Both the position numbers and the translations under genes were made by a program. 15,764 nt of DNA from positions 1 through 15,764 of the forward strand of contig CAWGSK010000005.1 of the NCBI GenBank assembly GCA_963825055.1, given 5' to 3'. Origin of the DNA: an uncultured Gemmatimonadales bacterium (GTDB lineage Bacteria > Gemmatimonadota > Gemmatimonadetes > Gemmatimonadales > GWC2-71-9). Under the pieces are notes generated by a model. It saw only the letters and a program-made list of their open reading frames with translations. It was not told the DNA's origin and did no database searches. Within the stretch, counting starts at the first letter, position 1, and every line of letters starts with the position of its first letter. Below, one piece after another: positions 1 to 15,764 of this stretch.

Positions 1-847
1 CGTTGAAGTTGGCGGATGGTACCGATGTATCGGCTCCTTCGCGGACAAGCCAGTGCAGGCCACTTGCGGTGACTAACTTCGACTCGTCCGCCCCAGTGAT
101 CCAGTTGTAGGTATTTACGAAGGAAGACTCGTAGCTCCCGCCGAACTTCTCGTGTGGTGCGTTATAGAGCATTCCCTCGATGAAGTACGAAGGCATGATC
201 TCTTCGTTGAGTGCCTGATCGTCGATCATCCGGTACCGCATATTCTTGTAGAGGCGAATTACCGGTTTGAGCCAGCTACTAGTACCTTGGTGCAGGGACG
301 TGAGATTTGCAGAGTGTTGCGTCGGGAAGTTCTCGATCTGCACGCCGTCGCTCCAGAAACAGATACCTTCGTCATACTGGTCATCGATTCCGGAGCTCCC
401 ATCCCGGTAGCGCCGGAACTTAATGCACACGATCACGTCCGCATCTCGCCGGTTACCGTTTCCCTTGACGCAGATCGCTTTCTTTCCCGACTGCGCGTCC
501 GAGCCGTACTTCTTCTGGAGCCACGCGAATACCTCGGCCCTGAAATCGCTCCAAGACACTTCAGCACGCACGAACGCCCTATCGTAGTTCGCTCGCGCTT
601 CCACACTCAGTCGGCCGGTGTCTGCGTAGTAGGTTTGATTCAGCCGGATCACGATGTCCACATCGCTTTCCCGGTAGACGTTTGTGTCATTGCCGTAGGA
701 GCCCTGGAGGAAGACTGAGTAGCTCCGGGAATGGTACGGAGCGTTCGCGTCATCGAGGACGCTCTTAATCGTGTTGTATGTTTGCGCTGACTGCGTGACC
801 GAGCCTTGCTTGGCCCAGGTGTCAAGTTGGTCTTCCGGTATTGCCAT
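1..847 (-). CDS. cdnE: cGAS/DncV-like nucleotidyltransferase (CD-NTase, CdnE clade), CBASS cyclase; 3'-truncated by window edge
   Basis: Not in the ORF track because there is no stop in the window. Manual translation from ATG 847 gives 282 open codons: MAIPEDQLDTWAKQGSVTQSAQTYNTIK...FLQGSYGNDTNVYRESDVDIVI...RRDADVIVC...IENFPTQHSANLT...KPVIRLYKNMR...PSYFIEGMLYN. It has the Pol-beta NTase G49-S50 and D62-x-D64 plus a third Asp (D137), and the CdnE-type NxP, IRxxK and PSYxxE motifs. An AGGGGA RBS overlaps the stop codon of the upstream patatin gene. Confidence 0.93.
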   Translation of the reverse strand, partial: MAIPEDQLDTWAKQGSVTQSAQTYNTIKSVLDDANAPYHSRSYSVFLQGSYGNDTNVYRESDVDIVIRLNQTYYADTGRLSVEARANYDRAFVRAEVSWSDFRAEVFAWLQKKYGSDAQSGKKAICVKGNGNRRDADVIVCIKFRRYRDGSSGIDDQYDEGICFWSDGVQIENFPTQHSANLTSLHQGTSSWLKPVIRLYKNMRYRMIDDQALNEEIMPSYFIEGMLYNAPHEKFGGSYESSFVNTYNWITGADESKLVTASGLHWLVREGADTSVPSANFN

Positions 848-856
848 CACTGTCCC

Positions 857-1783
857 CTAGCAGAGGTACGACTTGAGCGTATCTTCGTTGTCGGCGTAGG
901 ACTTTGCACCACGCTGCGTCAGGATGTTCAGCTTATCGAGATCCTGCTCGAAGAGGTCCGTCGCCATTGTCGGCTCCGAATACGACTGGCTGATGCGGAC
1001 GGTTGGGACGTGCTTGAACATGATTGCCCGAAGCTGCTCCATCGATTGCGTATTGATTTCCAGCGTCTTCTGGAGAAGCTGCACACCCGGCGTTTGTCTC
1101 TTCCAATAATCCAAAGACAGCATGCTTACAGGCTTCGGGGGATAGGTGCCGCAGCCCAGGCTCACCACCCGAATGTCCTCCGGCGCCTTCTCCATCGCTA
1201 TGATCGCGTCCGCGATTGCATACAACGTCGGATTGTTTGCGCAGAAACCGCCATCGATCAGTTCAACCCTGTCGCCCTTTTCCGTGACGACGATCTTGCG
1301 GTTGAAGTATGGGTAGGCCGAACAGGACGCCTGCACCGCGTCCCCAATCTTTACGCCAAAGCCCGGCGCAAACGTCCCTTTGCTCCCGTGTGCCTGGGCG
1401 ATGTTCGCCTTGAAAATTATAGGGCGCTCTTCAACCCATCGGGTCGCCACGATCCCGACGTTCGTTTTGACCGTCTCAAACCTCGCGTCCCCGAAGACCT
1501 TGTCGGAGAGTGCGGTGAGCGCGTGCGATTTGTCGCTCGCCGAGCTCGCCTGCATCACCTTCGTGACGTTGTCGGTATAGGTATCGGTGATCGCTTTGAC
1601 GGTGTTCCCGAGGGATAGCATTGCGCCGATGATCGACCCGGTACTAGTGCCGAAGATCAGATCGAAGCGCTCATGGAGCGGACAGCCAATCAGCGCTTCA
1701 ATCTCCCGAAGTATCCCGAGCGTGTAGAAACCTTTGGCGCCGCCGCCGTCAAGGCTAAGGACGCGGAACAGCTGTCCCGCCAT
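857..1783 (-). CDS. capE: Patatin-like phospholipase, CBASS effector (CapE/CapV type)
   Basis: 308 aa with DGGGAKG oxyanion loop, GTSTG nucleophile-Ser motif and DGG catalytic Asp. RBS AAGGGGG just upstream of the ATG. Only 9 nt separate it from the CD-NTase start. Confidence 0.9.
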   Translation of the reverse strand: MAGQLFRVLSLDGGGAKGFYTLGILREIEALIGCPLHERFDLIFGTSTGSIIGAMLSLGNTVKAITDTYTDNVTKVMQASSASDKSHALTALSDKVFGDARFETVKTNVGIVATRWVEERPIIFKANIAQAHGSKGTFAPGFGVKIGDAVQASCSAYPYFNRKIVVTEKGDRVELIDGGFCANNPTLYAIADAIIAMEKAPEDIRVVSLGCGTYPPKPVSMLSLDYWKRQTPGVQLLQKTLEINTQSMEQLRAIMFKHVPTVRISQSYSEPTMATDLFEQDLDKLNILTQRGAKSYADNEDTLKSYLC

Positions 1784-1870
1784 ACTTCCCCCTTGTAATT
1801 GTTCCTCTTCGGGGATTATTCACCTCCCCGTGTATCTCGATGGGTAGCACTCCCGAAATACTGTCGCTTC

Positions 1871-1902
1871 CAACGTCCGCTCCGGGTCGATAGCGGTCGT
1901 TG
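1871..1902. repeat. Short imperfect palindrome with AAC...GTT ends in the leader of the CBASS operon
   Basis: CAACG-T-CCGCT ccgggtcgat AGCGG-T-CGTTG: 11-bp stem with one mismatch and a 10-nt loop. Confidence 0.6.
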
Positions 1903-1914
1903 CGCACGATTGAC

Positions 1915-2052
1915 GCCCAACGTCCTGCGCTTAAGCTGCGGCGCGAAGCGCCGCAGCGGGTAAATGCAACGACCTTATGGCTTGCACGGCGGCCGAGGTG
2001 GCACTGCCAGCCCACGCCCGCAGGCGCTGACAGCTTTAAGCGCTTGTTAGGT
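1915..2052 (-). mobile_element. Integron attC recombination site (138 bp)
   Basis: Minus strand reads ACCTAAC (R'', fits RYYYAAC), 5-nt spacer AAGCG, CTTAAAGC (8-nt L''), a variable centre, GCTTAAG (7-nt L'), spacer CGCAGGAC, GTTGGGC (R', fits GTTRRRY). The arms GCGCTTAAAGCTG and CAGCTTAAGCGC pair with one extra base. It begins 11 nt after the stop of ORF 2064-2471. Confidence 0.88.
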
Positions 2053-2507
2053 GCTATTCGTTGTCAGGTTACCTGCCACCGGATGATCTGCTCCACATAG
2101 GTGGGTCGTGGTGGCTTGGAGAACGTCGAGTTCAGAATCATTGCCATCCCCGGCTGCTCGAACGCTTCATCGCTGGAGTCCTGGACGCGGATGGAGCAAG
2201 GGTCGGGCGTGCCGTCGGGCCGCACGAGAAAGGCGACGCGCACCCAGGCAGCAGTGCCCGTGGCTTCCCTCCCCTCGGGGTAGATCTGGTTCCCGGGGTG
2301 GAGCATACGGGGATGGGTCGTGCCTGAATCCCCGAGGAGCTGGTAGTAGGCCAGGAGGCTATCCGCTTGAGCCGGAATGCACGCCTGGGCCGTGCGTGCC
2401 GGAGCCGGCTGCGCGGGTGTCCCGCAGGTTAGTATGGAACTGATGCCGGCCAACGCAAGGTGGACTTTCACGAGTGGCTCATTCGCGAAGATGTGAATAG
2501 GACCTAA
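1921..2507 (-). mobile_element. Complete integron gene cassette (587 bp) carrying the TonB-C-like ORF
   Basis: Runs from G/TTAGGT (2508/2507) to the G of G/TTGGGC (1921). The cassette's 5' core GTTAGGT is the exact reverse complement of its own attC R'' ACCTAAC. It is a single ORF with minimal non-coding DNA. Confidence 0.8.
2064..2471 (-). CDS. Secreted protein with TonB C-terminal-like domain
   Basis: 135 aa, GTG start, hydrophobic N-terminus (MKVHLALAGISSILTC). The segment IYPEG...WVRVAFLVRPDGTPDPCSIRVQDSSDEAFEQ...STFSKP...VEQIIRW follows the TonB_C pattern YP..G.V.V.F.V..DG....V..SS...FE.......F.P. It lacks the long Pro-rich spacer of full TonB. Confidence 0.65.
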   Translation of the reverse strand: MKVHLALAGISSILTCGTPAQPAPARTAQACIPAQADSLLAYYQLLGDSGTTHPRMLHPGNQIYPEGREATGTAAWVRVAFLVRPDGTPDPCSIRVQDSSDEAFEQPGMAMILNSTFSKPPRPTYVEQIIRWQVT

Positions 2508-2525
2508 CTAGATATTCGATCCCGC
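2502..2525 (-). mobile_element. Putative attI-like (primary) cassette insertion site
   Basis: Minus strand GCGGGATCGAATATCTA-GTTAGGT gives a core site 30 nt before the cassette ORF. There is no minus-strand AAC inverse core in 2521-2700, so this is not the end of another attC. Confidence 0.55.
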
Positions 2526-2703
2526 TCTCGCCAAGGGCCTGCGCGGCCTCAGCAGACCCGGCCAAGCGCGCTAAGGGATCCTTCCCGTCTCGCAACTCCC
2601 AGCAGAGCCTCGATTCCAGTCTGCTGAAATCCAGTGGATGCGCAAGAGGAGGGAGGTACCCCCCTCACCTGAGCCGTAACCCCTGGATCTCCCTCCCGCA
2701 GCC

Positions 2704-2760
2704 AGGAGATGCTCACGAGGATCTCCTATAGCTTTTTCTAAACATGTAGTATATCCTACA
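2704..2760. promoter_or_regulatory. AT-rich promoter/operator region with two inverted repeats upstream of the HTH gene
   Basis: AGGAGAT-N10-ATCTCCT (2704-2727) and TGTAGTAT|ATCCTACA (2745-2760, 7/8 symmetric), ending 2 nt before ATG 2763. Contains -10-like hexamers on both strands (TAGTAT and TATCCT on +, TATACT on -). No SD sequence is seen. Confidence 0.45.
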
Positions 2761-2762
2761 GC

Positions 2763-3062
2763 ATGTCCTACGCTCCCCCCGAACCCAGGATCAAATGGGA
2801 CCAGCCCGGCCTCATGCAGGGCGTCACCATCGAGCGCTGGCTGGAGGGCCAGTGGTACGCCGAACGCATACCGCATAACGGCCTGGTCACCCAGGCACTG
2901 GCAGCCGAGCTGCTGGGGGTCAGCCTCATGTCAGTCAACAACTGGGTTCGGCAGGGGAAGATGCGGCACATCAAGGTCACGGGCCAGCCCTCGGTCATCA
3001 CGCTGAGCGAGGTCAAGCGGGTGCGGACCATTCTGGCAAGGGAAAAGCGGCTCCGGAGCTAG
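2763..3062 (+). CDS. Small helix-turn-helix DNA-binding protein (excisionase/HTH_17-like)
   Basis: 99 aa. LVTQALAAELLGVSLMSVNNWVRQGKMRHIKV...VITLSEV matches the xis/MerR-like pattern T..EAA..LGVS..TV..W...G.L. It has a ~40-aa N-terminal extension and a basic C-terminus. Confidence 0.75.
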   Translation: MSYAPPEPRIKWDQPGLMQGVTIERWLEGQWYAERIPHNGLVTQALAAELLGVSLMSVNNWVRQGKMRHIKVTGQPSVITLSEVKRVRTILAREKRLRS

Positions 3063-3232
3063 CCTTCTGACCGCGGCAGTACCGGCCACAGGCCGGGGAC
3101 AGGCCACTGGGTGGCCGGGTGGGGTCAACATGCCAAAAATCGGCAGGCGGAGGGCCACGCAGGGCCTCATCAATCAGATGGGGGAATTGCGTCGACAGGG
3201 GGTCCCGTTCCATGCTTATCGGCCGCCGTCCC

Positions 3233-3267
3233 GGAAACAGAACAGGCAGCCCAGAGGCTGCCTGTTC
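3233..3267 (-). terminator. Intrinsic terminator downstream of tRNA-Pro
   Basis: Perfect 12-bp stem GAACAGGCAGCC/GGCTGCCTGTTC (3240-3267) with a 4-nt loop, followed on the minus strand by TGTTTCC. It starts 5 nt after the tRNA. Confidence 0.75.
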
Positions 3268-3272
3268 CCTTA

Positions 3273-3346
3273 TCGGGACGGCGGGATTTGAACCCGCGAC
3301 CCCCTGAACCCCATTCAGGTGCGCTACCGGGCTGCGCTACGTCCCG
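3273..3346 (-). tRNA. tRNA-Pro (anticodon GGG), CCA not encoded
   Basis: CGGGACG TA GCGC AGCCCGGTA GCGC A CCTGA ATGGGGT TCAGG GGGTC GCGGG TTCAAAT CCCGC CGTCCCG A folds into a full cloverleaf with a GGG anticodon and a GGTTCAAATC T-loop. It is followed by TAA rather than CCA. Confidence 0.96.
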
Positions 3347-3604
3347 TCTACTGCGGTCGAAGGTCAAAGGTCGAAGGTCAAAATCTCCTTCGCCTGTAGC
3401 CCTCCGTTACCACTGCGTCCTTCAATGTCGCGGCAGCGACAGCCAGCCGAGCCTCGACTTCAGTCGAGGGCTACCGGGCTGCGCTACGTCCCGTCAACTG
3501 CGGTCAAAGGTCAAAGGGTCGAAGGTCGAAATCTCCCTCGCCTGTTGGCCTCCGTGACCTCTGGCATCCTTCTAATGTCGCGTCAGCGACAGCCAGCCGA
3601 GCCT
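3323..3604. repeat. Diverged tandem direct repeat, two copies (3323-3454 and 3470-3604), including the 5' 24 nt of tRNA-Pro
   Basis: Both copies begin GCTACCGGGCTGCGCTACGTCCCGTC and end AATGTCGCG(G/T)CAGCGACAGCCAGCCGAGCCT. The interiors align with scattered substitutions and small indels and contain GGTC(G/A)AA heptamer runs. The copies are separated by the hairpin CCTCGAC-TTCA-GTCGAGG. Confidence 0.9.
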
Positions 3605-3672
3605 GTGCCGCTCCTCGGCCGAGAACGAACGCCTGGCGACCTCGCTCCAATGCCGAGGGCGGCCGGGCGGGA

Positions 3673-3701
3673 ATACTAGCCACCGGCCCCACGGATGGAA
3701 A
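3673..3701 (-). promoter_or_regulatory. Candidate sigma70 promoter for the tRNA-Pro transcript
   Basis: Minus strand TTTCCA-N17-TAGTAT followed by a GC-rich discriminator TCCCGCCCGG, as in stable-RNA promoters. Matches to consensus are only partial. Confidence 0.35.
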
Positions 3702-3828
3702 GCCCTGCTGGCCCCGGCACCGCGGGGATCCCGTTTCCCTGAGTGAGCACGCCGGTGCTCAGATCGAATTGCCGGCGCGCTCGCCCGGCGCTCTTCGCCG
3801 GGCCCCCGGACCTCCTCAGGGGACCACC

Positions 3829-5199
3829 ATGTGCCTCCGACCCGCTCCACTGATGCTGGCCGTGATCCTGGCAGCTGCTCCTGCCGTCTCCCTGAGGGGT
3901 GGTGGGGGCCTTGCCGCCCAGTCCGCTCCCGTCGTGCTGGAGGGAGAAACCCTGCTCGGGGGCGCCCGTTCGACTGACGCTGCCCCCGTTCGCCAGCGGA
4001 TGACCGGTTTCGGCAATGCCTGGTCAGGGGATGCTCAGCTGTTCTGGGCGCCGCAGAAGCCCGGGGCCCGGCTGGCGCTCCAGGTCAGCGTGCCGAGCCA
4101 GGGAGTGTACGACGTGGCCGGCGCCTTCACCCGCGCCCCGGACTATGGCCAGTTCGAGATCTACGTGAACGGCAAACAGGTCGGGGGCCGGCAGGACGGC
4201 TACGCCCGCAAGGTGGTACACAGCGGCCGCCTCGCCCTGGGTCGGGCGACCATGAAAGCCGGAGCCAACACCGTCGAGATCGTGGTGCCCGCTCGTGCGG
4301 CCGCTTCGAGCGGCCTTCTGGTCGGCATTGACCGGCTCGAGTTCCGCCGGCTGCCGTCGCTCCAGCGGCCCGCGCGGGCCTCGACGGCCCGGGCGAACGT
4401 GGCCGCGGTCCGCTATCAGCCGGTCACACCGTATGCGGCGAACGTCAAGCCGATCGACCCCGGGATGTTCGCCCTCAAGCTGGTGGATCTGCGTCCGGCC
4501 ATGCAGATGAAGGGCCTCCCGATCCGGAACCAGGGAGTACGCGGGACGTGCTCGGTGTTCGCCCTCACGTTCCTGCTCGAGTGGAACTACACGGCGGGCG
4601 GGAAGGCCGCGGCAGGCAACCTGTCGGAAGAGTACCTGAATGCGACGGGTGACATGGTCGCCGGGGCCCACCAGGACGGCGGGATGTTTGCCGACCTGAA
4701 CAATGCCTACCAGCAGTACGGCATCGTCCTCGAAGCGACGCTGCCCTACCAGAACACGTACGATCCGACCCTGACGCTGCCGGCCGCGCTGCTCAAGTCG
4801 GGGAAGGCCTGGCCGCGCCAGAAGGCGGTATTCATCCGGACCTGGGACAATACGACCGGAGCCACGACCGCCGAACTCGAGCACGCCATTGCCTACCTCG
4901 ACAAGGGTCTCCCGGTCGCCGCGGGCATGTGGTGGCCGAAGAAGGGTTACTTCGCCACCCAGCCCACCCTGGGGGTGGACGTGATGTTCGTGCCCTCACC
5001 CAGCCAGAAGATGAGCATGCTGACCGACGGCCATTCCGTGGCACTGGTCGGCTACGCCAGGAGTCCGATGTTCCCGGGCGGCGGCTTTTTCGTCTTCCGC
5101 AACAGCTGGGGGACGTCGTTCGGTGACAACGGCTACGGCTATGTCCCCTTCGCCTATGTTACGCGATTTGCGAACGACCTGCTGGCGTACGAGCCGTGA
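3829..5199 (+). CDS. Secreted papain-like (C1A) cysteine peptidase with N-terminal beta-sandwich (CBM-like) domain
   Basis: Start moved to ATG 3829 (RBS AGGGGA at 3818-3823), followed by a signal-peptide-like segment. Catalytic motifs are RNQGVRGTCSVFA (Q, C), DGHSVALVGY (H) and FRNSWGTSFGDNGYGY (N). The N-terminal WSGDAQLFW...GVYDV...TRAPDYGQFEIYVNG...GANTVEI...GIDRLEF segment resembles a jelly-roll carbohydrate-binding fold. Confidence 0.88.
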   Translation: MCLRPAPLMLAVILAAAPAVSLRGGGGLAAQSAPVVLEGETLLGGARSTDAAPVRQRMTGFGNAWSGDAQLFWAPQKPGARLALQVSVPSQGVYDVAGAFTRAPDYGQFEIYVNGKQVGGRQDGYARKVVHSGRLALGRATMKAGANTVEIVVPARAAASSGLLVGIDRLEFRRLPSLQRPARASTARANVAAVRYQPVTPYAANVKPIDPGMFALKLVDLRPAMQMKGLPIRNQGVRGTCSVFALTFLLEWNYTAGGKAAAGNLSEEYLNATGDMVAGAHQDGGMFADLNNAYQQYGIVLEATLPYQNTYDPTLTLPAALLKSGKAWPRQKAVFIRTWDNTTGATTAELEHAIAYLDKGLPVAAGMWWPKKGYFATQPTLGVDVMFVPSPSQKMSMLTDGHSVALVGYARSPMFPGGGFFVFRNSWGTSFGDNGYGYVPFAYVTRFANDLLAYEP

Positions 5200-5220
5200 G
5201 TTCGACGTTGCCGGAGCAGC

Positions 5221-5253
5221 GCCGGAGGGCGGTCTCGATAGACCGCCCCCGGC
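5221..5253. terminator. GC-rich stem-loop between convergent genes (terminator or stabiliser)
   Basis: GCCGG-A-GGGCGGTCT cgat AGACCGCCC-CCGGC in the 63-bp gap between stop codons. No clear U tract. Confidence 0.5.
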
Positions 5254-5262
5254 AGCGTTCAC

Positions 5263-6573
5263 TCAGTTCGCAGTGCAGCACCCTTGTGCGCACCGGATCC
5301 AGAGCTTCTCGTCATTCCATACCCAACGCCAGCGCGCGGTACCCGGGATGGGCTTCCCGGCGGCAGAGTGGTCGACCCGGTCCACGCACCGGTACGCCGG
5401 TTCCGTGTTCAGGCCGGAGGTGATTCGGGCGTACCAGGTTCCCCCCGAGGGCGAGACCGGGCAGGACATGTCGCGTATTCCCTCACAACCTCTGCCATCG
5501 TCCATGCAAATGTCCATCGCAGCCATGCGCCGATTGGTGGATCCGTGGGGAAGGTCACCCTTGGTGAGGTTGTATTTCGAGGCGTAGACGGCCGAGGCCG
5601 CCGACAGCGCGATGGATGCGACGGGTCTCCACGTGTTCTTGAAGTCGTCCAATTCGAGATCTCCCAGGTCCGGCGCCGGCACCACCGTACCCGTGAATGG
5701 CGCCGGCAGGGTCGGCCCCTGGGGGTTGCCCTGTGGCGCCACGGCGAGATGTTGTTCGTCGTACCATCCCTTTACCGACCACACCCGCCGCTGCTCGGGG
5801 CTCCCGCTGTTGCCGATTCCGTAGTTCGGCGAATGCTGGAAGTGCTGCTCCCCGGTGACGGCGCACCAGTCATCCCCGCACGCCACACCTATGTACTGGA
5901 TTCCGGAAGGGCTCTGATCCCACCGCCCGACCGGGGGAACGCTGCCCCTGGGAAGATCAGGGAAATGCTGGGCGTAGACCCAGAGGGGGATCCCGGAAAG
6001 GTTCGACATCTGGGTGTGCTCGCACTGTCCGGCCTCGGCGACGGGTGCCATGACGGCGCCGTAGCCTGAACTGGAGTGGGCCGGGAAGACGACCAGGCAA
6101 TTCCAGCCCCGCTTGATACCCAGCGGCTCGTAGTCTCCGTCCCAGGCATAGATCAGGGCGAAGGTGAGGCCGTCCCCGACCACCTGGGGCGCCGACCGTC
6201 CTGGCACGTAGAGTGAATCGGCGAGGCTCGCGGGCGTGGAGTCCGGGTTCAGGAACGCCAGCGAGTCGGCCATGCGCTCCAGTACATACGACACCCAGAT
6301 GCCCGCAAGGGGACCGTAGGTATTCGCGCTCTGCATCAGGCGCTGGCAGTCGTGGAACTCCGCCACGGAGGTGATCGGGCCCGAGACCGGGAGGACCTTG
6401 GCACCTCCCGGCAGGCCCTCGGCATGGTTGGGGCACTCGAGGCTGTCGACGACGCCCACCTCAGGACCATCCATCTTCTGTTTCCGTGGACAGCCGAGGG
6501 TGACGGTGGCGGCCAGCGCGATCAGAGCCACCACGAGATACGCGTTCGGCCGGTACAGCATTGTGGTACGCAT
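5263..6573 (-). CDS. Cys-rich hypothetical lipoprotein with apparent internal two-domain repeat
   Basis: 436 aa. RBS GGGAGGG upstream, hydrophobic leader ending TLG-C28 (lipobox), 14 Cys in total. Starts 28 nt after the kinase stop on the same strand. Confidence 0.78.
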   Translation of the reverse strand: MRTTMLYRPNAYLVVALIALAATVTLGCPRKQKMDGPEVGVVDSLECPNHAEGLPGGAKVLPVSGPITSVAEFHDCQRLMQSANTYGPLAGIWVSYVLERMADSLAFLNPDSTPASLADSLYVPGRSAPQVVGDGLTFALIYAWDGDYEPLGIKRGWNCLVVFPAHSSSGYGAVMAPVAEAGQCEHTQMSNLSGIPLWVYAQHFPDLPRGSVPPVGRWDQSPSGIQYIGVACGDDWCAVTGEQHFQHSPNYGIGNSGSPEQRRVWSVKGWYDEQHLAVAPQGNPQGPTLPAPFTGTVVPAPDLGDLELDDFKNTWRPVASIALSAASAVYASKYNLTKGDLPHGSTNRRMAAMDICMDDGRGCEGIRDMSCPVSPSGGTWYARITSGLNTEPAYRCVDRVDHSAAGKPIPGTARWRWVWNDEKLWIRCAQGCCTAN

Positions 6574-6601
6574 GGACCCTCCCTGTCAGGTGGAGTCAGC
6601 G

Positions 6602-9600
6602 CTATCTGGGCTCGCCGGGCCGCTGTCCGGCAACCAGGCGGGCCATATCACTTCGAATCGGCTGGAGGAAGGCATCTGCTTCGCGCCACAGGATCGCGAC
6701 CGGTGCCGCCCAGCGCGCGGCCTCCGCCGTGCGCCCGAGACGCCCGGCCACGTCGGCACGCAGCGCCATGGCGCGCACCAGCGTGCCCGCCTTCACCGGC
6801 TCGGTGAAGGTTTCAAGCGGCGCCGTGGCCAGGCCGTCGAGCGTCGGCGCCAGCCACCGCAGGGCCGCCGGGCCGTCACCCACGGCCGCCAGCAGCCAGG
6901 CCTCCGGATACAGGGCATCGATCACGGCATCGGATCCGCGGATCTGCCCGACCTGGTTGAGCACCGCGCGCACGCCCGCCGAGTCCTGGTCCATATAGGC
7001 CAGCTCGGCATTAATGATGTAATAGTCGAACCCGCGAAACTCGCGCATGCGCGCCGACCGGTGGGTCGGGAACGCAATGCCGGCCGGGCGGAGCAGCCAG
7101 GCCTCGCGGAGGTAGCCACGATCCTCCTGGGAGCGCACCTGACCTAGCGCCTCGACCACACGCTCTTCGAGTTGCTCGAGACTGTCCGCCGGACCGCCAA
7201 GGGCAGAGAAGACCAGCAGGGCCGGGGCAGAGGAGCGCATCATCGGCGCCATGACCCATTCATCGCGGCCCGATCCGAGCCGGGCGAGACGCGCGCCTTC
7301 CGCGGCCCGGCCCGTAAGCGCCGCCAGCGCCGCCAGGTTGTCACCCCCGGTCCGGGGGGTCTCGAGCAGGGAATCGATGAGGCTCCCGGCCACGCGCAAG
7401 GCGGCGGTGTCATCGGGGATGCCGAAGCGCACCATCATCCGGGCCTGGGTCATCGCGAACCGGTCCTGCTCGGCCGGTGGAGCCCGGAGGCGCGCCCGGG
7501 CCATCGTATCCAGTGCGGCCCGGTTCCCGAGCAGCTCGAGCGAGATGGCAAGCGCCTCGAGCGCGTCAGGGTCGTCGGGCGTCTGACTGACCCAGGTGAG
7601 GGCAATGCTGTGGAACAGCTCGAGCTGGTGCTGCACCGCCAGGCCAGCACTCCGGCCGGACACCTCCATGCCCTGAATGCGATCGATCGGCCACGGGATC
7701 AGGGCAAGCGTGTCACCCTGCCACGAGGGATAAGCCATGAATCCGACACCTGAGGCGCCGGGAGCCGTGCCAGCCCGGAGGGAACTGGGGCTCGTACGCA
7801 GCAGTTCCCGCACCGGCTCGTACGAGTTGGAGCGCAACGTGGCCATGATCGCGGGAAGCAAATCGAAGGAACGCTGGTACGCCTGAAGAGCCGAGTGGAA
7901 ACTGGAACGAAACCGGTAGCCAGAGGGGCTCTGCGGGTCCGGCAGGACGAGAGAGTCGGCGCGCTGGCACACCGCCGAGCCATACCAGGCAACGAAATCG
8001 GTGGGTCTGCGGTCGGTCAGGGCCTGCCAGCGGGGACAGGCCTGTCCGAGGGCTCCACGGGACTGGGCCAGAACGGCAGTCACGATTGCGGTGTCAGAGG
8101 GCGGCAGGTTGGCCCGGTTCGCCGCCGCCTGCTCGGCGGCGATCCGCCAGGTCGCGGGATCGGTGCCGTTCCATGCCCGGACCAGCGCCAGCCAGAGCCA
8201 GGCCTGGGCATAGCCGGGGTCGGTCCGGGTCGCCTCGGCAAAGGCGGTATCCGCTCCGTCCAGGTTCCAGATCCGGACCGCTTCCTGGCCGCGCGCATAC
8301 GCCTGGAGCGCCGGGAAGGATTTCGTCCCGACAAATCCGCTCGCCCCCGCCTGCTCGGGCCTGGTCAGCAGGAGGCGGTCCGCCAGCCCACGGAAGAGGG
8401 TATCCGCGCCGTCCAGCGACGGCGGAAGGTTGATCGTGCCGTCCCGCAACTGCGCCCCGCTCCGGGTGTCGTACAGGGCCGCGTGAACCCGCAGGGAATC
8501 CCCCACCGGCGAGACGTCTCCACGCACGTAGCGGCCTGCGCCCAGGCGGGACGCGATCCGCACCGCGTCCTGCGGACTCAGGTCGCCGTGTCCACTGTGC
8601 TCGACCGCGTCCCGTACCTGGAAGCTGCCGGGTACAGAGATGCCTTCCCAGCGCGAAATCGCATCCTGCAGCATGAGTTCGAGATTGGGGGCGCGATCAG
8701 ACTCGGTGTGGTACGAGAAGGGCAGTACTGCGAACCGCATCGTGTCGACCATGAGCCCCTCGCCGTTTCGGGCGGGCCACGCGACGGCGGCAATCGCGAC
8801 AATCACGGCCAGAAGCACCGCGGCCGCACCCCACAGCACCCACCTCGGCCCGGTCACCATCCGCGCCACCGCCGGCGGCAGCTTGATGACCGTTGCCATG
8901 CCGGACGGCCGGCCCAGCGCGCTGGCGAACGACTCGATCGACGGGAACCGGTCATCCACCCGCGGCGACAGCGCCCGCTGAATGGCGGTCCCGAAGGACG
9001 GAGGGGCATCCCGATGCTGGGCCCGGATCATCTCGGCCACGCGCCCAGGCCCGTCGCTTGCCGGCGTGCGCCCGGTCAACATCTCGTACAGCACGCAGGC
9101 CAGGGAATACTGGTCCGCCCGTCCGTCCACCTCGCTCGACCCGGTGATCTGTTCCGGCGCCATATAGGCCGGTGTGCCAAGAATGAGCCCGGTTTCCGTG
9201 ATCCGGTCGTGGGTGACGGCTGCCTGCACCGCCCGCGCAATCCCGAAGTCCGTAATGAAGACATGGCCGCTGGCCAGCAGGATGTTTCCGGGCTTGATGT
9301 CGCGGTGAATGACCCCGACCTCGTGCGCATGCGCGAGGCCTTCCGCCACCTGCCGCGCTAGCGTGATCGCCTCGGCCACCGACGGCGGTGGTTCGCGGCG
9401 CATCCGGTCGCTCAGCGTGCCATGCTCGACCCACGGCATGACGTAGTAGATATGTCCCCCCGCCTCGCCGGAGTCGTGCAGCGGGAGGATGTTGTGATGG
9501 TTCAGCCGGGCCGCGAAGGCGATCTCGCGGAGAAATCGCTCCCGGCCGAGGAGGATGGCCAGGTCGTGCCGGAGAACCTTGATGGCGACCGGTCTGTCAT

Positions 9601-9736
9601 GCTTCAGGTCACGCGCGAGCCAGACCGTAGCCATCCCTCCGCGGCCAATTTCCCGCTCCAGGCGGTACTGGCCGGCCAGTTCGGCGCGGAAGGCGTCGAG
9701 GTCGTCATGCGGAGCAGTGTGGCCCGGTCCGGGCAT
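6602..9736 (-). CDS. Hanks-type Ser/Thr protein kinase with TM helix, TolB-N/FlgO-like alpha/beta domain and TPR-like repeats
   Basis: 1044 aa with GRGGMATV, VAIK, HRDIKPGN, DFG and GTPAYMAPE. TM segment WVLWGAAAVLLAVIVAIAAVAW, then RFAVLPF...LGAGRYVRGDV...LRVHAALYDT, then Ala-rich helical repeats. Confidence 0.93.
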   Translation of the reverse strand: MPGPGHTAPHDDLDAFRAELAGQYRLEREIGRGGMATVWLARDLKHDRPVAIKVLRHDLAILLGRERFLREIAFAARLNHHNILPLHDSGEAGGHIYYVMPWVEHGTLSDRMRREPPPSVAEAITLARQVAEGLAHAHEVGVIHRDIKPGNILLASGHVFITDFGIARAVQAAVTHDRITETGLILGTPAYMAPEQITGSSEVDGRADQYSLACVLYEMLTGRTPASDGPGRVAEMIRAQHRDAPPSFGTAIQRALSPRVDDRFPSIESFASALGRPSGMATVIKLPPAVARMVTGPRWVLWGAAAVLLAVIVAIAAVAWPARNGEGLMVDTMRFAVLPFSYHTESDRAPNLELMLQDAISRWEGISVPGSFQVRDAVEHSGHGDLSPQDAVRIASRLGAGRYVRGDVSPVGDSLRVHAALYDTRSGAQLRDGTINLPPSLDGADTLFRGLADRLLLTRPEQAGASGFVGTKSFPALQAYARGQEAVRIWNLDGADTAFAEATRTDPGYAQAWLWLALVRAWNGTDPATWRIAAEQAAANRANLPPSDTAIVTAVLAQSRGALGQACPRWQALTDRRPTDFVAWYGSAVCQRADSLVLPDPQSPSGYRFRSSFHSALQAYQRSFDLLPAIMATLRSNSYEPVRELLRTSPSSLRAGTAPGASGVGFMAYPSWQGDTLALIPWPIDRIQGMEVSGRSAGLAVQHQLELFHSIALTWVSQTPDDPDALEALAISLELLGNRAALDTMARARLRAPPAEQDRFAMTQARMMVRFGIPDDTAALRVAGSLIDSLLETPRTGGDNLAALAALTGRAAEGARLARLGSGRDEWVMAPMMRSSAPALLVFSALGGPADSLEQLEERVVEALGQVRSQEDRGYLREAWLLRPAGIAFPTHRSARMREFRGFDYYIINAELAYMDQDSAGVRAVLNQVGQIRGSDAVIDALYPEAWLLAAVGDGPAALRWLAPTLDGLATAPLETFTEPVKAGTLVRAMALRADVAGRLGRTAEAARWAAPVAILWREADAFLQPIRSDMARLVAGQRPGEPR

Positions 9737-9852
9737 GGTGTATCATGGGGAAGCGGGCCGGGTGCCGCAAGCGGCTGCACCCCGCGGGACGGAAACTCCG
9801 CCCGGTGCGCCACTTAGCCTCCTCCCTTACATTAGAGCCGCAGACCGTCACC

Positions 9853-12354
9853 ATGGACATTCTCACCCAACTCCAGAGCGCCCTGGCGGGGCGTTACGCT
9901 GTCGAGCGCGAGCTTGGGCAGGGAGGAATGGCCACGGTCTATCTCGCCACCGACGAGCGGCACGGGCGCCAGGTGGCGATCAAGGTCCTGAAGCCGGAAC
10001 TGGCCTCCGCGCTCGGGCCCGACCGGTTCCTCCGCGAGATCCGGCTCGCCGCAGGGCTCCAGCATCCCCACATCCTCGCGGTGTACGACTCGGGCGACGC
10101 GGACGGCCTGCTCTACTACGTCATGCCGTTCGTGGAAGGCGAGTCGCTCCGTGACCGGCTCGACCGCGAGCAGCAACTCCCGATCCACGACGCGGTCATC
10201 CTCGCGCGCGAGGTGGCCGACGCGCTCGCCTTTGCGCACAGCCACGGCGTGGTCCACCGGGACATCAAGCCCGAGAACATCCTGATCTCCGGCGGGCACG
10301 CCGTGGTGGCCGACTTCGGTATCGCCCGCGCCGTGAGCGCGGCCGGCGAGGAAAAGCTGACCCAGACGGGGATGAGCATCGGGACGCCCACGTACATGAG
10401 TCCCGAGCAGGCGATGGGCGACGAATCCGTGGACGGCCGGAGCGACATCTACAGCCTGGGCTGCGTCATCTACGAGATGCTCTGCGGCCAGCCGCCGTTC
10501 CTGGGCCCCAACCCGATGGCGATCCTGGCCAGGCACTCGATGGAAGCCGTGCCGAGCCTCAGCATCGTCCGGAACACCATCCCTCCCGAACTGGAAGACA
10601 TCGTTTACCGGGCGCTCGCCAAGGTGCCGGCCGACCGGTACCAGACCGCCAAGCAGCTCGCAACGGCCCTTTCGGTACCGCTGGAAGCCACGACCGGCGC
10701 CCACCCGCGCGCGACGACCGGCATGCGGGCGCGGCGGCGCCCGTCCCGCTTCCGGCGGGCCTGGCTGGGCCTGCTGCTGATCCCGGCGGCGGCCGCCGCC
10801 TGGTACGTGATGCATGCGCTCGGCGGTGGGGGAGGCAACGCCCCGTCCGGGCGCGACCCGAACAACATCGCGGTGCTTTACTTCGAGGACAAAACCGGCG
10901 GTGACCTGCAGCACGTGGCCGAGGGTTTCACCGAAGCGCTCATCCACGAGTTGAGCGACGTGCCGGCGCTGCACGTCATCTCCGCCAACGGGGTCCGCCC
11001 CTACCAGGGCACCAGGGTCAGCCCGGACAGCATCGCCCGCGCCCTCGACGTGGGTACGCTGGTGTCCGGGACGGTGAACGGCACGGACTCGACGATCACG
11101 CTCGACGTCTCCCTCATCAACGCCGGCACGGGAAAGGAGATTTCCCATACCAGGCTGGAACAGCCGCGCCGCGACATCGCGGCCCTGCAGGACAGCCTTT
11201 CCGGGCAGCTCTCCGTCTTCCTGCGCAAGCGCCTCGGCCCCGAGGTCGACCTGCGGGAACGCCGGACCCGGACCCGGAGCGCCGAAGCCTGGGAGACGCT
11301 GCAGCGGGCCGACGCCGAGTCGCGGGACGCCGATACGCTCCTGGCCTCGGGCGATGCAGCGGCTGCGGCGGCCGCCTTCGACCGCGCGGATTCGATGATG
11401 GCCGCGGCGGGTGAACGCGACTCCCGGTGGTCCGCCCCGGCGGTGCACCGGGCCTGGCTCGCCTATCGACGCTCGCGCATTGCGCTGGGCCGGAACCCGG
11501 ACATGGTCGATACCTGGATCGGCCGCGGCACCGAATACGCGAATCATGCGCTCGCGATCGACCGGGACGATCCCGATGCGCTGGAGGCGCGCGGGACGCT
11601 CCGGTACTGGCGCTGGCTCCTCAACCTGGAGCCCGACACGCGGGCCGCGCGCCAGCTGCATCTGGATGCCGAGGCGGACCTGCGCGCCGCCATCACGGCG
11701 AACCCGAACCAGGCCCAGGCCCTGAGCACCCTCAGCCACCTGCTCCTCGGGCAGTCGAAGAACGCCGAGGGCAAAGTGATGGCCCAGCGGGCCTACGAGG
11801 CGGACCCGTACCTGAGCAATGCCGACCAGGTGCTCTGGCGGCTCTTCCAGGCCTCGTTCGACCTGAACGACGCCGGCCAGGCCCGCCACTGGTGCGAGGT
11901 GGGGGGGCAGCGGTTCCCCGAGAACCCCAGGTTTACCGGCTGCAGAATCCAGGTACTGGCCCTGAAGGCCAGCCCGGCCGACATCCCGGGTGCGCGACAG
12001 ATGCTCGATCGGTATGTAGCCCTGACGCCGCCGTCCCAGCAGGAGATGGCCCGGCACCTGGGCGGAATGTTCCTGGCCATGGGGTTCGCCCGTGCCGGCA
12101 TGGCGGACAGCGCTCGCGCCGCCGCCCTGCGCTCCAGGGCCACAGCTGAGGTCGATCCCACCCGCGATCTCGCCCTCTACGAGTCCATCGTACGGGCGAT
12201 GATCGGCGACCGGGACGAAGCCTTCCGGCAACTCAGCATCTACATCGCCTCCAATCCCCGCGTCAGGGAGCTGCTGGCGGATGACCAGTCATGGTACTTC
12301 GACAGCCTCCGGAAGGATCCGCGCTACCAGACCCTGGTGGGCACCAGGGGGTAA
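9853..12354 (+). CDS. Hanks-type Ser/Thr protein kinase with TM helix, TolB-N-like domain and TPR-like repeats
   Basis: Start moved to ATG 9853 (MDILTQLQSALAGRYAVERELGQGGMATVYLA). Motifs VAIK, HRDIKPEN, DFG, GTPTYMSPE and DIYSLG. A basic patch precedes the TM AWLGLLLIPAAAAAWYV, followed by an IAVLYF domain and a C-terminal ...FDSLRKDPRYQTLV typical of these kinase-TPR proteins. Confidence 0.94.
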   Translation: MDILTQLQSALAGRYAVERELGQGGMATVYLATDERHGRQVAIKVLKPELASALGPDRFLREIRLAAGLQHPHILAVYDSGDADGLLYYVMPFVEGESLRDRLDREQQLPIHDAVILAREVADALAFAHSHGVVHRDIKPENILISGGHAVVADFGIARAVSAAGEEKLTQTGMSIGTPTYMSPEQAMGDESVDGRSDIYSLGCVIYEMLCGQPPFLGPNPMAILARHSMEAVPSLSIVRNTIPPELEDIVYRALAKVPADRYQTAKQLATALSVPLEATTGAHPRATTGMRARRRPSRFRRAWLGLLLIPAAAAAWYVMHALGGGGGNAPSGRDPNNIAVLYFEDKTGGDLQHVAEGFTEALIHELSDVPALHVISANGVRPYQGTRVSPDSIARALDVGTLVSGTVNGTDSTITLDVSLINAGTGKEISHTRLEQPRRDIAALQDSLSGQLSVFLRKRLGPEVDLRERRTRTRSAEAWETLQRADAESRDADTLLASGDAAAAAAAFDRADSMMAAAGERDSRWSAPAVHRAWLAYRRSRIALGRNPDMVDTWIGRGTEYANHALAIDRDDPDALEARGTLRYWRWLLNLEPDTRAARQLHLDAEADLRAAITANPNQAQALSTLSHLLLGQSKNAEGKVMAQRAYEADPYLSNADQVLWRLFQASFDLNDAGQARHWCEVGGQRFPENPRFTGCRIQVLALKASPADIPGARQMLDRYVALTPPSQQEMARHLGGMFLAMGFARAGMADSARAAALRSRATAEVDPTRDLALYESIVRAMIGDRDEAFRQLSIYIASNPRVRELLADDQSWYFDSLRKDPRYQTLVGTRG

Positions 12355-12565
12355 ACCCGGCCCCGGTTGTGCACCCGATGCCACGACTGGGGCGCCGGGA
12401 CCATATACAGTCGGGGCGGAACTTCTTTTCCTGAACCTCCAAGTCGTTATTTCACAACACGATGGATCGCCCGGTGCGTGTCGGTGTTTCGAGGCATGCA
12501 TTTTCCAGCATTTTCACCTGATCCTTCATCCGTTGTCCCCCTGCATCAGGTAATAAGGAGTTCCC

Positions 12566-13780
12566 ATGAAGTTTCGTTACGCCCTCCCGGTGGCGCTATT
12601 GCTGGCCGTGGTTTCCTGTCAGGATGGTCCCGACCAGTCCCTTGGCGCGCCGAACCCCGAGTTTGTCGGCGGAGTCGCCTGCAGCATCAACGGTGCCAAG
12701 TCCGCCGCCAAGACCTACTTCACGGGGGCTGACCAGGCTCGTGCCCTCGGCCTGATCGAGCAATTGCAGCAGCAGATGAACGGGAGTCCCGCGGTCGCCC
12801 GTGACCTGGGCTTCGACGTTCTTGCGCTGATTGCCGAGGCCAACAATGCGGGCCGGGCCGCCGGGAAGCCGAAGGACGGCTCGACCCTGGCCAACGCCGT
12901 CGTGGCTTGCACGGACCTCAACGAGGGATATCCGGATCCGCTGGGCGACGCGCTCCGCAACGGGGCCTTCGAGGTCCGGGGTGGCCCGAATGACCCGACG
13001 TCGAACATCGTGTCGAAGGACGGCTTCTCCGGCCTGGGCCTGAACGGCGACGCGACCTGGCTCGGTATCTTCGGACGCCGGACGCTTATCTGGGGGACTC
13101 CGGCGCCGCGGCTCACCTTCCAGGAGGTCCTGGTGGACATACCGTTCATCTGGTCCACCCTTCCGGCCAGTCCGCAGGTGCCGAAAGGCCTGATCGTCGG
13201 CTTCTGCGTGCCGAATCCCGGCAATCTCCGGGTGGCGGAACAGTCCGCGAACGCGCCGGAGGTGATCCTGAACCTGGCGGATCCGAGCTTCTTCCTGCCG
13301 TGTCCGAACTTGATTGCCGGCCGTGAGCCCGCGACCATGTTCGGCCGGGTCCTGGCCTGGGCGGGTCAGGCGCTCCTTCCCGCGCCGCTCCACGCGGCCG
13401 CCCGGCTCGGCCCGGTGGGTGGATCCACGACCGGGTTCAGCGGATTCGGAGCCGTGGATGCCCAGGCGATCAACCTGTCCTTCACGCAGCAGCCGACCGC
13501 GAGCACCGTCCGGCAGCCGTTCGTGCCGCCGGTGCAGCTGATTGCCGTTGGCAACGGTGGAACGCCCCTGCCGCAGGTGACCGTCAAGATGAGCCTGGTG
13601 ACACTCCAGGGGAACGGGATCCTCGATGGCCAGAACAGCGTCGTGACGGTGCAGGACGGACTGGCCACGTTCGACCGGCTCTTCCTGACCGCTCCCGGTA
13701 CCTACCAGCTGGTGGCGACGGCGTCGTTGTCGGGCTTCCCGTCGGTGCAGGTGACGTCGAGTACGTTTACGGTGCAGTAG
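12566..13780 (+). CDS. Hypothetical lipoprotein with C-terminal Ig-like domain
   Basis: 404 aa. Strong RBS TAAGGAG (12554-12560) and lipobox VVS-C18. The C-terminal LSFTQQP...VTV...DGLATFDRL...PGTYQLVATA...SSTFTVQ resembles bacterial Ig-like domains. Confidence 0.82.
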   Translation: MKFRYALPVALLLAVVSCQDGPDQSLGAPNPEFVGGVACSINGAKSAAKTYFTGADQARALGLIEQLQQQMNGSPAVARDLGFDVLALIAEANNAGRAAGKPKDGSTLANAVVACTDLNEGYPDPLGDALRNGAFEVRGGPNDPTSNIVSKDGFSGLGLNGDATWLGIFGRRTLIWGTPAPRLTFQEVLVDIPFIWSTLPASPQVPKGLIVGFCVPNPGNLRVAEQSANAPEVILNLADPSFFLPCPNLIAGREPATMFGRVLAWAGQALLPAPLHAAARLGPVGGSTTGFSGFGAVDAQAINLSFTQQPTASTVRQPFVPPVQLIAVGNGGTPLPQVTVKMSLVTLQGNGILDGQNSVVTVQDGLATFDRLFLTAPGTYQLVATASLSGFPSVQVTSSTFTVQ

Positions 13781-13814
13781 GAACTGCCGGCAATCGGCAG
13801 TCGGCAGTGAGAGG

Positions 13815-13844
13815 ACGGCCCCCATGTGGGGGCCGTTTTCGTTT
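13815..13844 (+). terminator. Intrinsic terminator
   Basis: ACGGCCCCC-ATGT-GGGGGCCGT followed by TTTCGTTT, 34 nt after the lipoprotein stop. Confidence 0.85.
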
Positions 13845-13899
13845 GTGATCAGGCGAGGGCGGAGCGGGAGGGCGGTGGAACAGCTGCAGAGGGCACTGG

Positions 13900-13986
13900 C
13901 TGGTGACTGGTGATAGTGATTAATGATCAGTGATTCAAGGCAGAATCCTGCACTGAAGCACTACTCACTACTCACTACTCACTATT
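13900..13986. repeat. Heptamer tandem repeats in inverted arrangement
   Basis: (CACTACT)x3 plus CACTATT at 13959-13986, overlapping the AKR stop codon. Degenerate roughly complementary units CTGGTGA CTGGTGA TAGTGA TTAATGA TCAGTGA lie at 13900-13933. Confidence 0.7.
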
Positions 13987-14977
13987 CTCTGTAGTCCTTC
14001 TCCCCCTCCGGCCTGTTCTGCAGGACTTCCTCAATCCGCTCCACCACCTCTGGCGTCAGGGCAGGGACGAGGCTCAGCGCGGCCATGTTCTCGTCGACCT
14101 GGTCCGGGTGTGACGCGCCGGTGATGGTGGTGCTGACGTGGGGATTGAGCAGGGTCCACGCGATGGCGAGCTGGGCGAGCGTGGCGCCCAGATCCTGCGC
14201 GATGGGCGCGAGGCGGCGCACCTTCTCGATCCGGTCCTGTCCTTCCTCACTTTCCAGCCGGTCCCGCAGCATGCCGTACCCCTCGAGTGACAGGCGGCTG
14301 CCCTCGGGGATGCCGTCGTTGTATTTCCCGGTCAACAGGCCGCTCGAGAGCGGACTCCAGACCGTGAGGCCGAGTCCGACGTCACGGTAGAGCCGGGCAA
14401 AATCACGCTCCACTTTGTCCCGGACGAACATGTTGTACTGGGGCTGCTCCATGGTGGGGGGCACGAGGTGTTCCTGCCGCGCGACCGCGTGGGCCACGCG
14501 GATCTGTTCCGCCGTCCACTGGCTCGTGCCCCAGTAGAACGCCTTGCCCTGGTCAACCAGCCAGGACATTGCGCGAACCGTCTCTTCAATGGGCGTCTCG
14601 GGATCCGGTCGGTGGCAGAAGAGCAGGTCCACATAGTCCATGCCCAGGCGGTCGAGGGAGGCCATGGTCCCCTCGATGAGGTGCTTGCGGCTCAGGCCCT
14701 GGTCATTCGGGCCGCTGCCGCCCCAGAACATCTTGGTGGAAATGATCAGGTCGGAGCGCTTCCAGCCCGCCTTGCGGATGAGGCGCCCCATGACTTCCTC
14801 GGCACGGCCGCCCGCGTAGGCTTCCGCGTTATCGAAGAAGTTCACGCCGTGGTCCCGCGCCCGGGTAAGACAGGCCAGGGCCATGTCCTCGTCGACCTGG
14901 TCCCCGAGGGTGACCCACGCCCCGAAGGACAGCGCCGAGATCCGGAGTCCGGCGCTGCCGAGGCGACGGTATTCCAT
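13982..14977 (-). CDS. Aldo/keto reductase (Kv-beta-like subfamily)
   Basis: 331 aa. [21 protein letters not shown] start, FFDNAEAY (Asp, Tyr), IISTK (Lys), [25 protein letters not shown] and [13 protein letters not shown]. Confidence 0.95.
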
Positions 14978-14993
14978 GGGGTCTCCTGGGTGA

Positions 14994-15695
14994 TCAGCGA
15001 CGGGCGGCGGCGAGGCTGTCCATCAGCATTCTCGCCACCTTGCCCGCCGACTGCGGGTTCTGACCGGTGATGAGGTTGCCGTCCGCCACGGCGGTCTCCG
15101 TGAACGGTTCGCCGCGGTTCACTTCCGCCCCGAGTGCCTCGAGCCGCTCGTCCAGGAAGAAAGGTACCTTGTCTTCCAGCCCCACCTTCTTCTCTTCCGC
15201 CCGGGTGAAGGCGCTCACCGTCCGCCCCCGGACCACCGGCTCGCCCTCGTCGGTGGTGGCGGAAACGAGACCGGCCGGCCCGTGGCAGACCGCCGCCACG
15301 GGCCTGCCCTCGGCGAGCATGCGGCTCACGCCGCGGGCCAGCGCCTCGCTGCCGGGCATGTCCCACATGGTGCCATGTCCGCCCGGGAGAAAGATGGCAT
15401 CGTACCGGCCGAAGTCCACCTGGTCCACTGCCACCGTCTCTGACAGCAGGGCCTGGGCCTTGACGTCGGCGGCATAGCGGGCGTTGGGCGCGTCCTGGCA
15501 GGCATCGTCGGTGGTGCTCCTGGGATCGAGCGGGACCTGACCGCCTCCCACGGAGACCACATCCACCTTGAGCCCGCCATCCAGCAGCGCGTAATACGGC
15601 TCGGTGAATTCGCTGAGCCACAGTCCCGTCGGTTCATCACTGCCGCCCATGGTGGCGCTCGACGTCAGTACCATCAGGATCCTCGGGGTGGTCAT
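14994..15695 (-). CDS. DJ-1/PfpI family type-1 glutamine amidotransferase-like protein (Hsp31/glyoxalase III-like)
   Basis: 233 aa with TGLWLSE (Glu), [19 protein letters not shown] (Cys-His) and [19 protein letters not shown] upstream, and it ends 16 nt before the AKR gene. Confidence 0.93.
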
Positions 15696-15764
15696 CGTTC
15701 CTCCTCATGCGGGAAACCGTTGCGGATATCAACTATGGTCCCGGGGACGGGAATGCGCCGTGAT

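Follow-up and report, generated by a model that had tools for sequence, protein, structure and literature searches.

The locus described here raises the question of whether a two-gene CBASS anti-phage operon is carried as an integron gene cassette and, if so, where that cassette begins. The window (the whole stretch of DNA analysed, 15,764 nucleotides) is the entire contig C5 of a Gemmatimonadales assembly (G000; 87% complete, 6% contaminated), and its base 1 is a contig end. As argued below, capE-cdnE is probably a cassette, lying within an array that has no integrase. The features on which the argument draws are collected in Table 1.

Table 1. Features of the window (positions on the forward strand)
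Feature	Position	Strand	Remarks
cdnE, clade-E CD-NTase, 282 aa seen	1..847	(-)	NF053871, 399 bits (cut-off 350)
capE, patatin phospholipase, 308 aa	857..1783	(-)	NF053870, 478 bits (cut-off 400)
Cassette leader, non-coding, 138 nt	1784..1921	(-)	attC crossover to capE start
Palindrome, 7-bp arms, 10-nt spacer	1872..1903	(-)	18 nt inside the cassette
attC, 138 nt	1915..2052	(-)	R'' ACCTAAC, paired L boxes with one extra base, R' GTTGGGC
Cassette 1, 463 nt	2046..2508	(-)	ends complementary at 13/14 nt
TonB-C-like ORF of cassette 1, 135 aa	2471-2064	(-)	TonB_C E 3e-4, under cut-off
attI-like site	2502..2520	(-)	AT-rich run, TAGTTAGG; no adjacent intI
Excisionase-like HTH gene, 99 aa	2763..3062	(+)	HTH_17 E 4e-6; TIGR01764 under cut-off
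tRNA-Pro(GGG)	3273..3346	(-)	array situated past tRNA 3' end

The CBASS genes and their place in the array

Both genes match PADLOC CBASS models (the cyclase at E 3e-108) in addition to the NCBIfam models of Table 1. The best PDB match of CapE is 9iom, a 'cUMP-AMP-activated phospholipase' (E 2e-119), and its motifs GGGAKG (13-18), GTSTG (S47) and DGG (D177) are present. CdnE best matches chain 6e0k (E 6e-50), which we take to be the R. marinus enzyme (RmCdnE), and has G49-S50, D62/D64, D137 and the lid residue N173. Judged from these matches, the pair belongs to type I CBASS and its catalytic motifs are intact; that it is a CBASS was as the original prediction held. The contig, and with it the window, begins inside cdnE, which is therefore truncated: 282 of about 296 aa are present (~14 aa lost), and a full-length relative, P0132, is 92% identical and 296 aa long. 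The start of the window cdnE was placed at 847, not 850, because the related locus L051 (see below) retains only the ATG of 847. The capE stop is followed by a 9-nt gap, and a GGGGA ribosome site spans the stop. The translational coupling that had been proposed is therefore plausible from the sequence, but the genes are separated by 9 nt and do not overlap.

The lid residue Asn173 aligns with Asn166 of 6e0k, which agrees with the Asn166 given in PMC10442399, and the (R/Q)xW motif is absent at the matching CdnE position. Because of these two features, and by the rule relating the lid Asn and (R/Q)xW to the CD-NTase product in the accessible text of that paper, cUMP-AMP is the predicted CdnE product. 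The region that matches the lid-3 loop is without the Trp that most relatives have, and the missing Trp could mean a product different from cUMP-AMP. Upon infection, by inference from homologues, CdnE would make cUMP-AMP; CapE would bind it, polymerise and hydrolyse membrane phospholipids, and this loss would kill the infected cell and abort the phage infection. The accessible part of a review (PMC13434031) describes the same course, from the CdnE product cUA through CapE filaments to membrane destruction.

The genes lie in the same orientation as the attC site, and the capE ATG (1783) is found 131 nt past GTTGGGC (G at 1921, end of the 7-mer at 1915). Their GC content (0.554 for cdnE and 0.576 for capE) is below that of the kinase region (0.695-0.698 for the two kinases) and of the genome (0.68), in which only 10 of 1841 tiles of 1.9 kb have a GC as low as the CBASS region. 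Following cassette 1 and the attC at 2052-1915, the CBASS occupies the second position in the array. Spacing, orientation, GC contrast and array position were all as originally predicted, and the guess that the host belongs to Gemmatimonadota is consistent with the top plasmid match of a kinase gene, Gemmatirosa.

The identity of the attC site rests on its box anatomy and repeat family because its folding energy is unremarkable, being no better than that of shuffled sequences (z -1.17). The assembly contains 15 near-full copies of this family (1 on C5, 3 on C8 and 11 on C11), 12 of which were used to build the attC profile. On C11, 3 of 8 pairs of neighbouring sites have ends that match at 10 of 12 nt or better, compared with 4 of 73 non-neighbour pairs, in a test that covers the 9 sites caught by the script and in which some 'neighbours' skip a site. 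Cassettes were delimited by the complementarity of their ends, a test that superseded a weak attC scorer (known sites 7.5-18.5, with 1 of 12 missed; background 99th percentile 12.2). That the attC junction is an assembly chimera was considered and rejected: L051 starts identically, and the attC family is also present on C8 and C11. Further arrays of the family, without intI, are located at G000:C11:2161-14169 and C8:1-8045; shorter attC-like sites, differing in type, are found on C8 as well, near 95-215 and 823-853.

On its sequence, the 5' site of cassette 1 looks like attI. In 18 of the 30 integron loci of the family that we inspected (L154-L183), the first GTTAG site comes after intI and on its strand, so that the integrase points towards the array; in 5 of the 30 the form after intI is TAGTTAG. 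No intI stands beside the attI-like site of the window; the 99-aa HTH gene occupies the expected intI position, with the tRNA-Pro gene there as well. Nor was any intI detected in the 87%-complete assembly, in which the best TIGR02249 score is 91 bits (cut-off 265). Either the array lacks an integrase, or the intI belonging to it was left out of the assembly. The original prediction had the cassette open to excision, reordering or transfer by an IntI, for which the assembly gives no gene; the cassette is likely immobile here, barring an unassembled intI or one arriving in trans. The claim that such a CBASS cassette is notable in a probable Gemmatimonadota genome was overstated: 77 of 151 family genomes have an integron integrase over the cut-off (a tally that counts the unpublished G067 and G133), integrons in the phylum are already in print (in the accessible text of PMC8618304), and a CBASS cassette has been published as well.

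Cassette boundaries in relatives

We compared 130 capE loci (50 from genomes and the best 80 of 118 from metagenomes), which represent 118 distinct loci, 83 of them having both flanks and so testable, unlike the other 35. L051 is 94% identical to the window over 1699 nt, with the match beginning at GTT. Over the stretch that begins with the G of GTTGGGC and ends with the A of the capE ATG, 125 of 139 positions are identical, compared with 37 of 131 upstream of this G. In that upstream part L051 carries two other cassettes besides an unrelated attC, and also an IntI that scores 372.5 bits (cut-off 265). The host DNA of L051 is 41% GC compared with 68% for the window genome. The proposed 5' cassette boundary is thus well supported, since the L051 unit, too, starts at GTTGGGC, with another attC before it. 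A common start behind two unrelated attC sites is the trace expected of transfer by IntI, which would have moved the cassette as a unit. As a separate matter, cdnE of L051 is interrupted at codon 208 by unrelated DNA (L051:4567-4694; an insertion or a chimera), and the L051 cluster also includes an intact 296-aa CdnE.

The cdnE 3' end and any downstream attC of the window lie off the contig, and L051 also loses the end of cdnE. The cdnE C-terminus was found on no other contig of the assembly, and the 10-nt complement of the cassette start was found beside no attC in it. Among the 83 testable relatives, four (L008, L009, L012 and L080) have complementary cassette ends (9-12 nt) around 1.9-2.05 kb; as a control, complementarity of at least 9 nt occurred in 0.28% of 6806 mismatched pairs. 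A clear attC follows cdnE in three of the four, and that of L080 looks degenerate; the upstream site of L008 is no clear attC, and intI is present in the L008 locus. Orthologues never flanked by attC would have spoken for a neighbouring island, and these four loci show otherwise. Cassette form is nevertheless a minority among relatives, because matching ends were not found in 79 of the 83 testable loci and because all five sequencing runs that reach the leader (see below) diverge before the attC crossover. Further relatives (L005, L006, L009, L071, L080 and L081) have sequence in common only from the GTTAGGTTG start onwards, at -22 to -28.

In a CapE tree of 49 full-length rows (identity at least 63%), cassette-type copies stand in three places, and the window is placed beside L001/L052/L053 (support 90/83). 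At E 1e-60, capE was detected in 3 of 401 phylum genomes and in none of 166 other family genomes. A close copy was absent from 72,556 plasmids and 5,426 E. coli genomes (best 64-71%), as well as from the 20 relatives, 200 family genomes and viral contigs searched; the 64-nt cassette head had no plasmid match. Taken together, the sequence comparisons suggest that capE-cdnE is likely a complete ~2-kb integron cassette, the second unit of the array, acquired from another lineage.

Two further loci deserve mention. In the Accumulibacter cassette L008, a second pair, GTTGGAT / ATCCAAC (at the beginning of the leader and at 6859-6865), frames the genes inside the cassette and is possibly an older cassette boundary. 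L194 (G376:C4:122927-123838), from a host of the same order as that of the window, has a 42%-identical patatin near attC-like sites and no CdnE match in the locus, and is perhaps another defence cassette.

A palindrome as a likely second boundary

The original prediction overlooked a likely second boundary, at 1903-1872, where a palindrome (fold z -3.48) lies just inside the cassette. We compared eight sequencing runs (Logan); contigs of X1, X15 and X19 stop short of the leader. In all five runs that reach it (X2, X3, X6, X9 and X11, from five studies), the match to the window ends at 1890-1896. These copies are roughly 94-95% identical, and their breakpoint is inside the palindrome, 25-31 nt short of the attC crossover. 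One left flank is common to X6, X9 and X11, and another is found in X2; these flanks, of which 30 letters were read, could themselves lie within cassettes. In L001, L052, L053 and L062 (78-79%), the next closest relatives and not in cassette form, the shared leader begins inside the same motif, 113-129 nt before the ATG, behind four different left flanks, and in L010/L068 similarity begins at -86, also at the motif. In L052 and L053 a 208-aa tyrosine recombinase ends 43-69 nt before the site. From these sequence comparisons, a mini tyrosine recombinase likely acts at the palindrome, which would be a further 5' boundary of the module, within the cassette.

A strict half-site pattern, written after seeing the sites, matched 7 of 108 capE upstream regions (about 1 expected). 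In a partly circular test, it gave 6 matches within 200 nt of 11 recombinase genes, compared with 2 in the other 58 kb. At eight plasmid recombinase loci chosen without regard to capE, the strict pattern was found in 2, and a profile matched 1. A loose pattern (256 genome matches) was discarded. The idea that the palindrome is a GMT site found no support in the accessible text of the GMT preprint (10.1101/2023.03.28.534373).

A somewhat unlikely alternative is that the cassette is an ordinary one and the palindrome a regulatory hairpin of its leader (an operator or promoter element) with no role in recombination. Leader hairpins are common, the motif test has the circularity just described, only two of the eight independent loci have the strict motif, and no recombinase of the 208-aa type was found in G000. 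A regulatory hairpin, however, would be expected to stay intact, without mismatched arms, whereas homology breaks inside this palindrome in two allele groups, with two flanks among the runs and four among L001/L052/L053/L062, to which L010/L068 can be added.

The reading of the palindrome as a recombination site also bears on the age of the two boundaries. Because the site is present in non-cassette sister lineages, the comparison suggests that it is older than the attC frame. L006 and L009 have 79 nt in common, from the attC crossover (after the attC of cdnE) to a similar palindrome, beyond which they diverge into DNA that is not cassette-like. This 79-nt stretch is another example of an attC head that ends in a palindromic site, and a candidate landing-pad cassette.

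The same L006/L009 arrangement would also fit an improbable alternative in which there is no excisable cassette: the array would stop at the attC, and the mini recombinase would have inserted the site-bounded CBASS module into a short cassette head (the GTTGGGCGTC head) or a terminal remnant, with no attC behind it. Near-identical copies in five runs break at the palindrome rather than at the attC, and neither the window nor L051 has a 3' end. However, the GTTGGGCGTC head and the module occur together in two hosts (68% and 41% GC) and follow a different attC in each, so that IntI transfer of the whole cassette is the simplest explanation, and relatives do exist as cassettes closed at both ends (4/83).

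Under the reading of a cassette that holds a second site, the module likely has two means of movement, nested one within the other. Besides IntI, the second route would be a small tyrosine recombinase acting at the palindrome; we infer this nesting less firmly than the arrival by IntI. The cassette likely originated with the placement of such a site-bounded module downstream of an attC crossover. More generally, we propose, tentatively and as something that is on the whole unlikely, that cassettes can be built from the modules of a second exchange system, one that has been little studied, by one of two variants. In recombinase drop-in, the mini tyrosine recombinase would put a site-bounded module (here the whole CBASS) into a short attC-framed landing pad; in attC framing, an attC would come to flank the module with its site left intact.

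The origin of integron cassettes is not yet settled. One that retains a boundary belonging to a different mobile system is a ready substrate for testing one genesis route, and its second site may show how ready-made defence modules are packed into cassettes. If true, the proposal would offer a specific, testable way in which cassettes are generated, and would connect two shuffling systems between which defence modules are passed. The locus also extends the range of cassette-borne defence to a phospholipase CBASS of 2 kb. This CBASS crosses between distant hosts, and its cassette-form copies occupy three separate places in the CapE tree.

Comparison with known systems and the surroundings of the array

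pdif modules are cargo bounded by short inverted-repeat sites, as the module of the window would be. GMT islands (10.1101/2023.03.28.534373) similarly have defence cargo between short inverted-repeat sites; according to the accessible text, however, they require three genes and have another core and a 14-bp spacer, whereas the candidate here is a lone 208-aa tyrosine recombinase. In E. coli, CdnE-CapE type I CBASS (9iom; Wang et al. 2025, summarised in PMC13434031) consists of the same two proteins as in the window, and RmCdnE (6e0k) is a further counterpart of the cyclase. Intact catalytic motifs and the lid Asn are shared with these systems; unlike them, the window pair lies behind an attC and has a C-terminal loop without the usual Trp.

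A CBASS cassette by itself is already known. Kieffer et al. (10.1101/2024.07.02.601719) describe brc135 (gcu135), a two-gene type I CBASS-like defence system in an integron cassette that is active against HK544. In the accessible text its partner protein is described as membrane-related, not as a patatin, and the window unit differs further in its size of about 2 kb and its second putative recombination site; the nested second site is the added element here. Darracq et al. (10.1101/2024.07.02.601686) report 783 defence systems in cassettes of sedentary integrons, never of over two components in the part of the text accessible, and speak of constraints on cassette 'genesis'. CALINs (attC clusters lacking an integrase; PMC8618304, accessible text) resemble the window in having attC-bounded cassettes and no intI in the assembly; unlike them, the window keeps an attI-like site, and arrays of the same attC family are also present on C8 and C11. 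In a literature search that mostly left subscription papers aside, we found no capE-cdnE cassette (although patatin CBASS cassettes may be among those in Table S4 of Darracq et al.), nothing on sites of a mini recombinase inside cassettes and no published name for the module.

DS-2 (DefensePredictor, PMC13092281; NF053870/NF053871) has the same gene order, and both of its models are passed by the window proteins; according to the accessible text it requires a third gene, a diadenylate cyclase (DAC), which the closed cassettes of relatives do not have. From 69 loci of relatives we extracted 40 downstream ORFs, set aside 5 that were mis-picked or off target, and scanned the remaining 35. It is very improbable that capE-cdnE are the first two genes of a three-gene system of this type with the DAC past the contig end: both DS-2 NCBIfam models are passed, the DAC is essential in DS-2 (PMC13092281, accessible text) and DAC-type sensor domains occur in 6 of the 35 ORFs, but these six loci (L023, L108, L110, L121, L122 and L130) are relatives at the 56-61% level, the nearer relatives in the scan (L001, L052, L008, L012, L074 and L081) have other downstream genes, and closed cassettes contain two genes only. 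No Cap2/3 or Cap7/8 family member was found among the 35 ORFs, and the window contig itself ends inside cdnE.

Around the array, an Rfam scan returned the tRNA and chance matches and nothing else, and no sigma-70-like promoter was found in 1700-3300. A long hairpin (3223-3284) overlaps the tRNA 3' end, and a different hairpin stands in the same place on C17. A tandem 135-nt duplication (90%; 3323-3454 / 3470-3604) comprises the 5' part of the tRNA and its upstream region; it contains short repeats of the GGTCGAA/GGTCAAA type, which recur on C12 and C34. A second block of tRNA-Pro(GGG), peptidase C1, hypothetical and kinase genes, the counterpart of window 3273-8319, is located at G000:C17:80636-86918. 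It is 87% identical to the window over 1.8 kb and 66-74% beyond, and its tRNA is without an array; the block is either an old duplication or part of a contaminating sister genome. Further along, window 9267-15764 overlaps the end of C29 (G000:C29:22445-28942) over 6.5 kb at 99.9%, and the two contigs probably join. Finally, two secreted-looking proteins without a Pfam match (436 and 404 aa) are encoded beside Ser/Thr kinases at 5263-6573 and 12566-13780.
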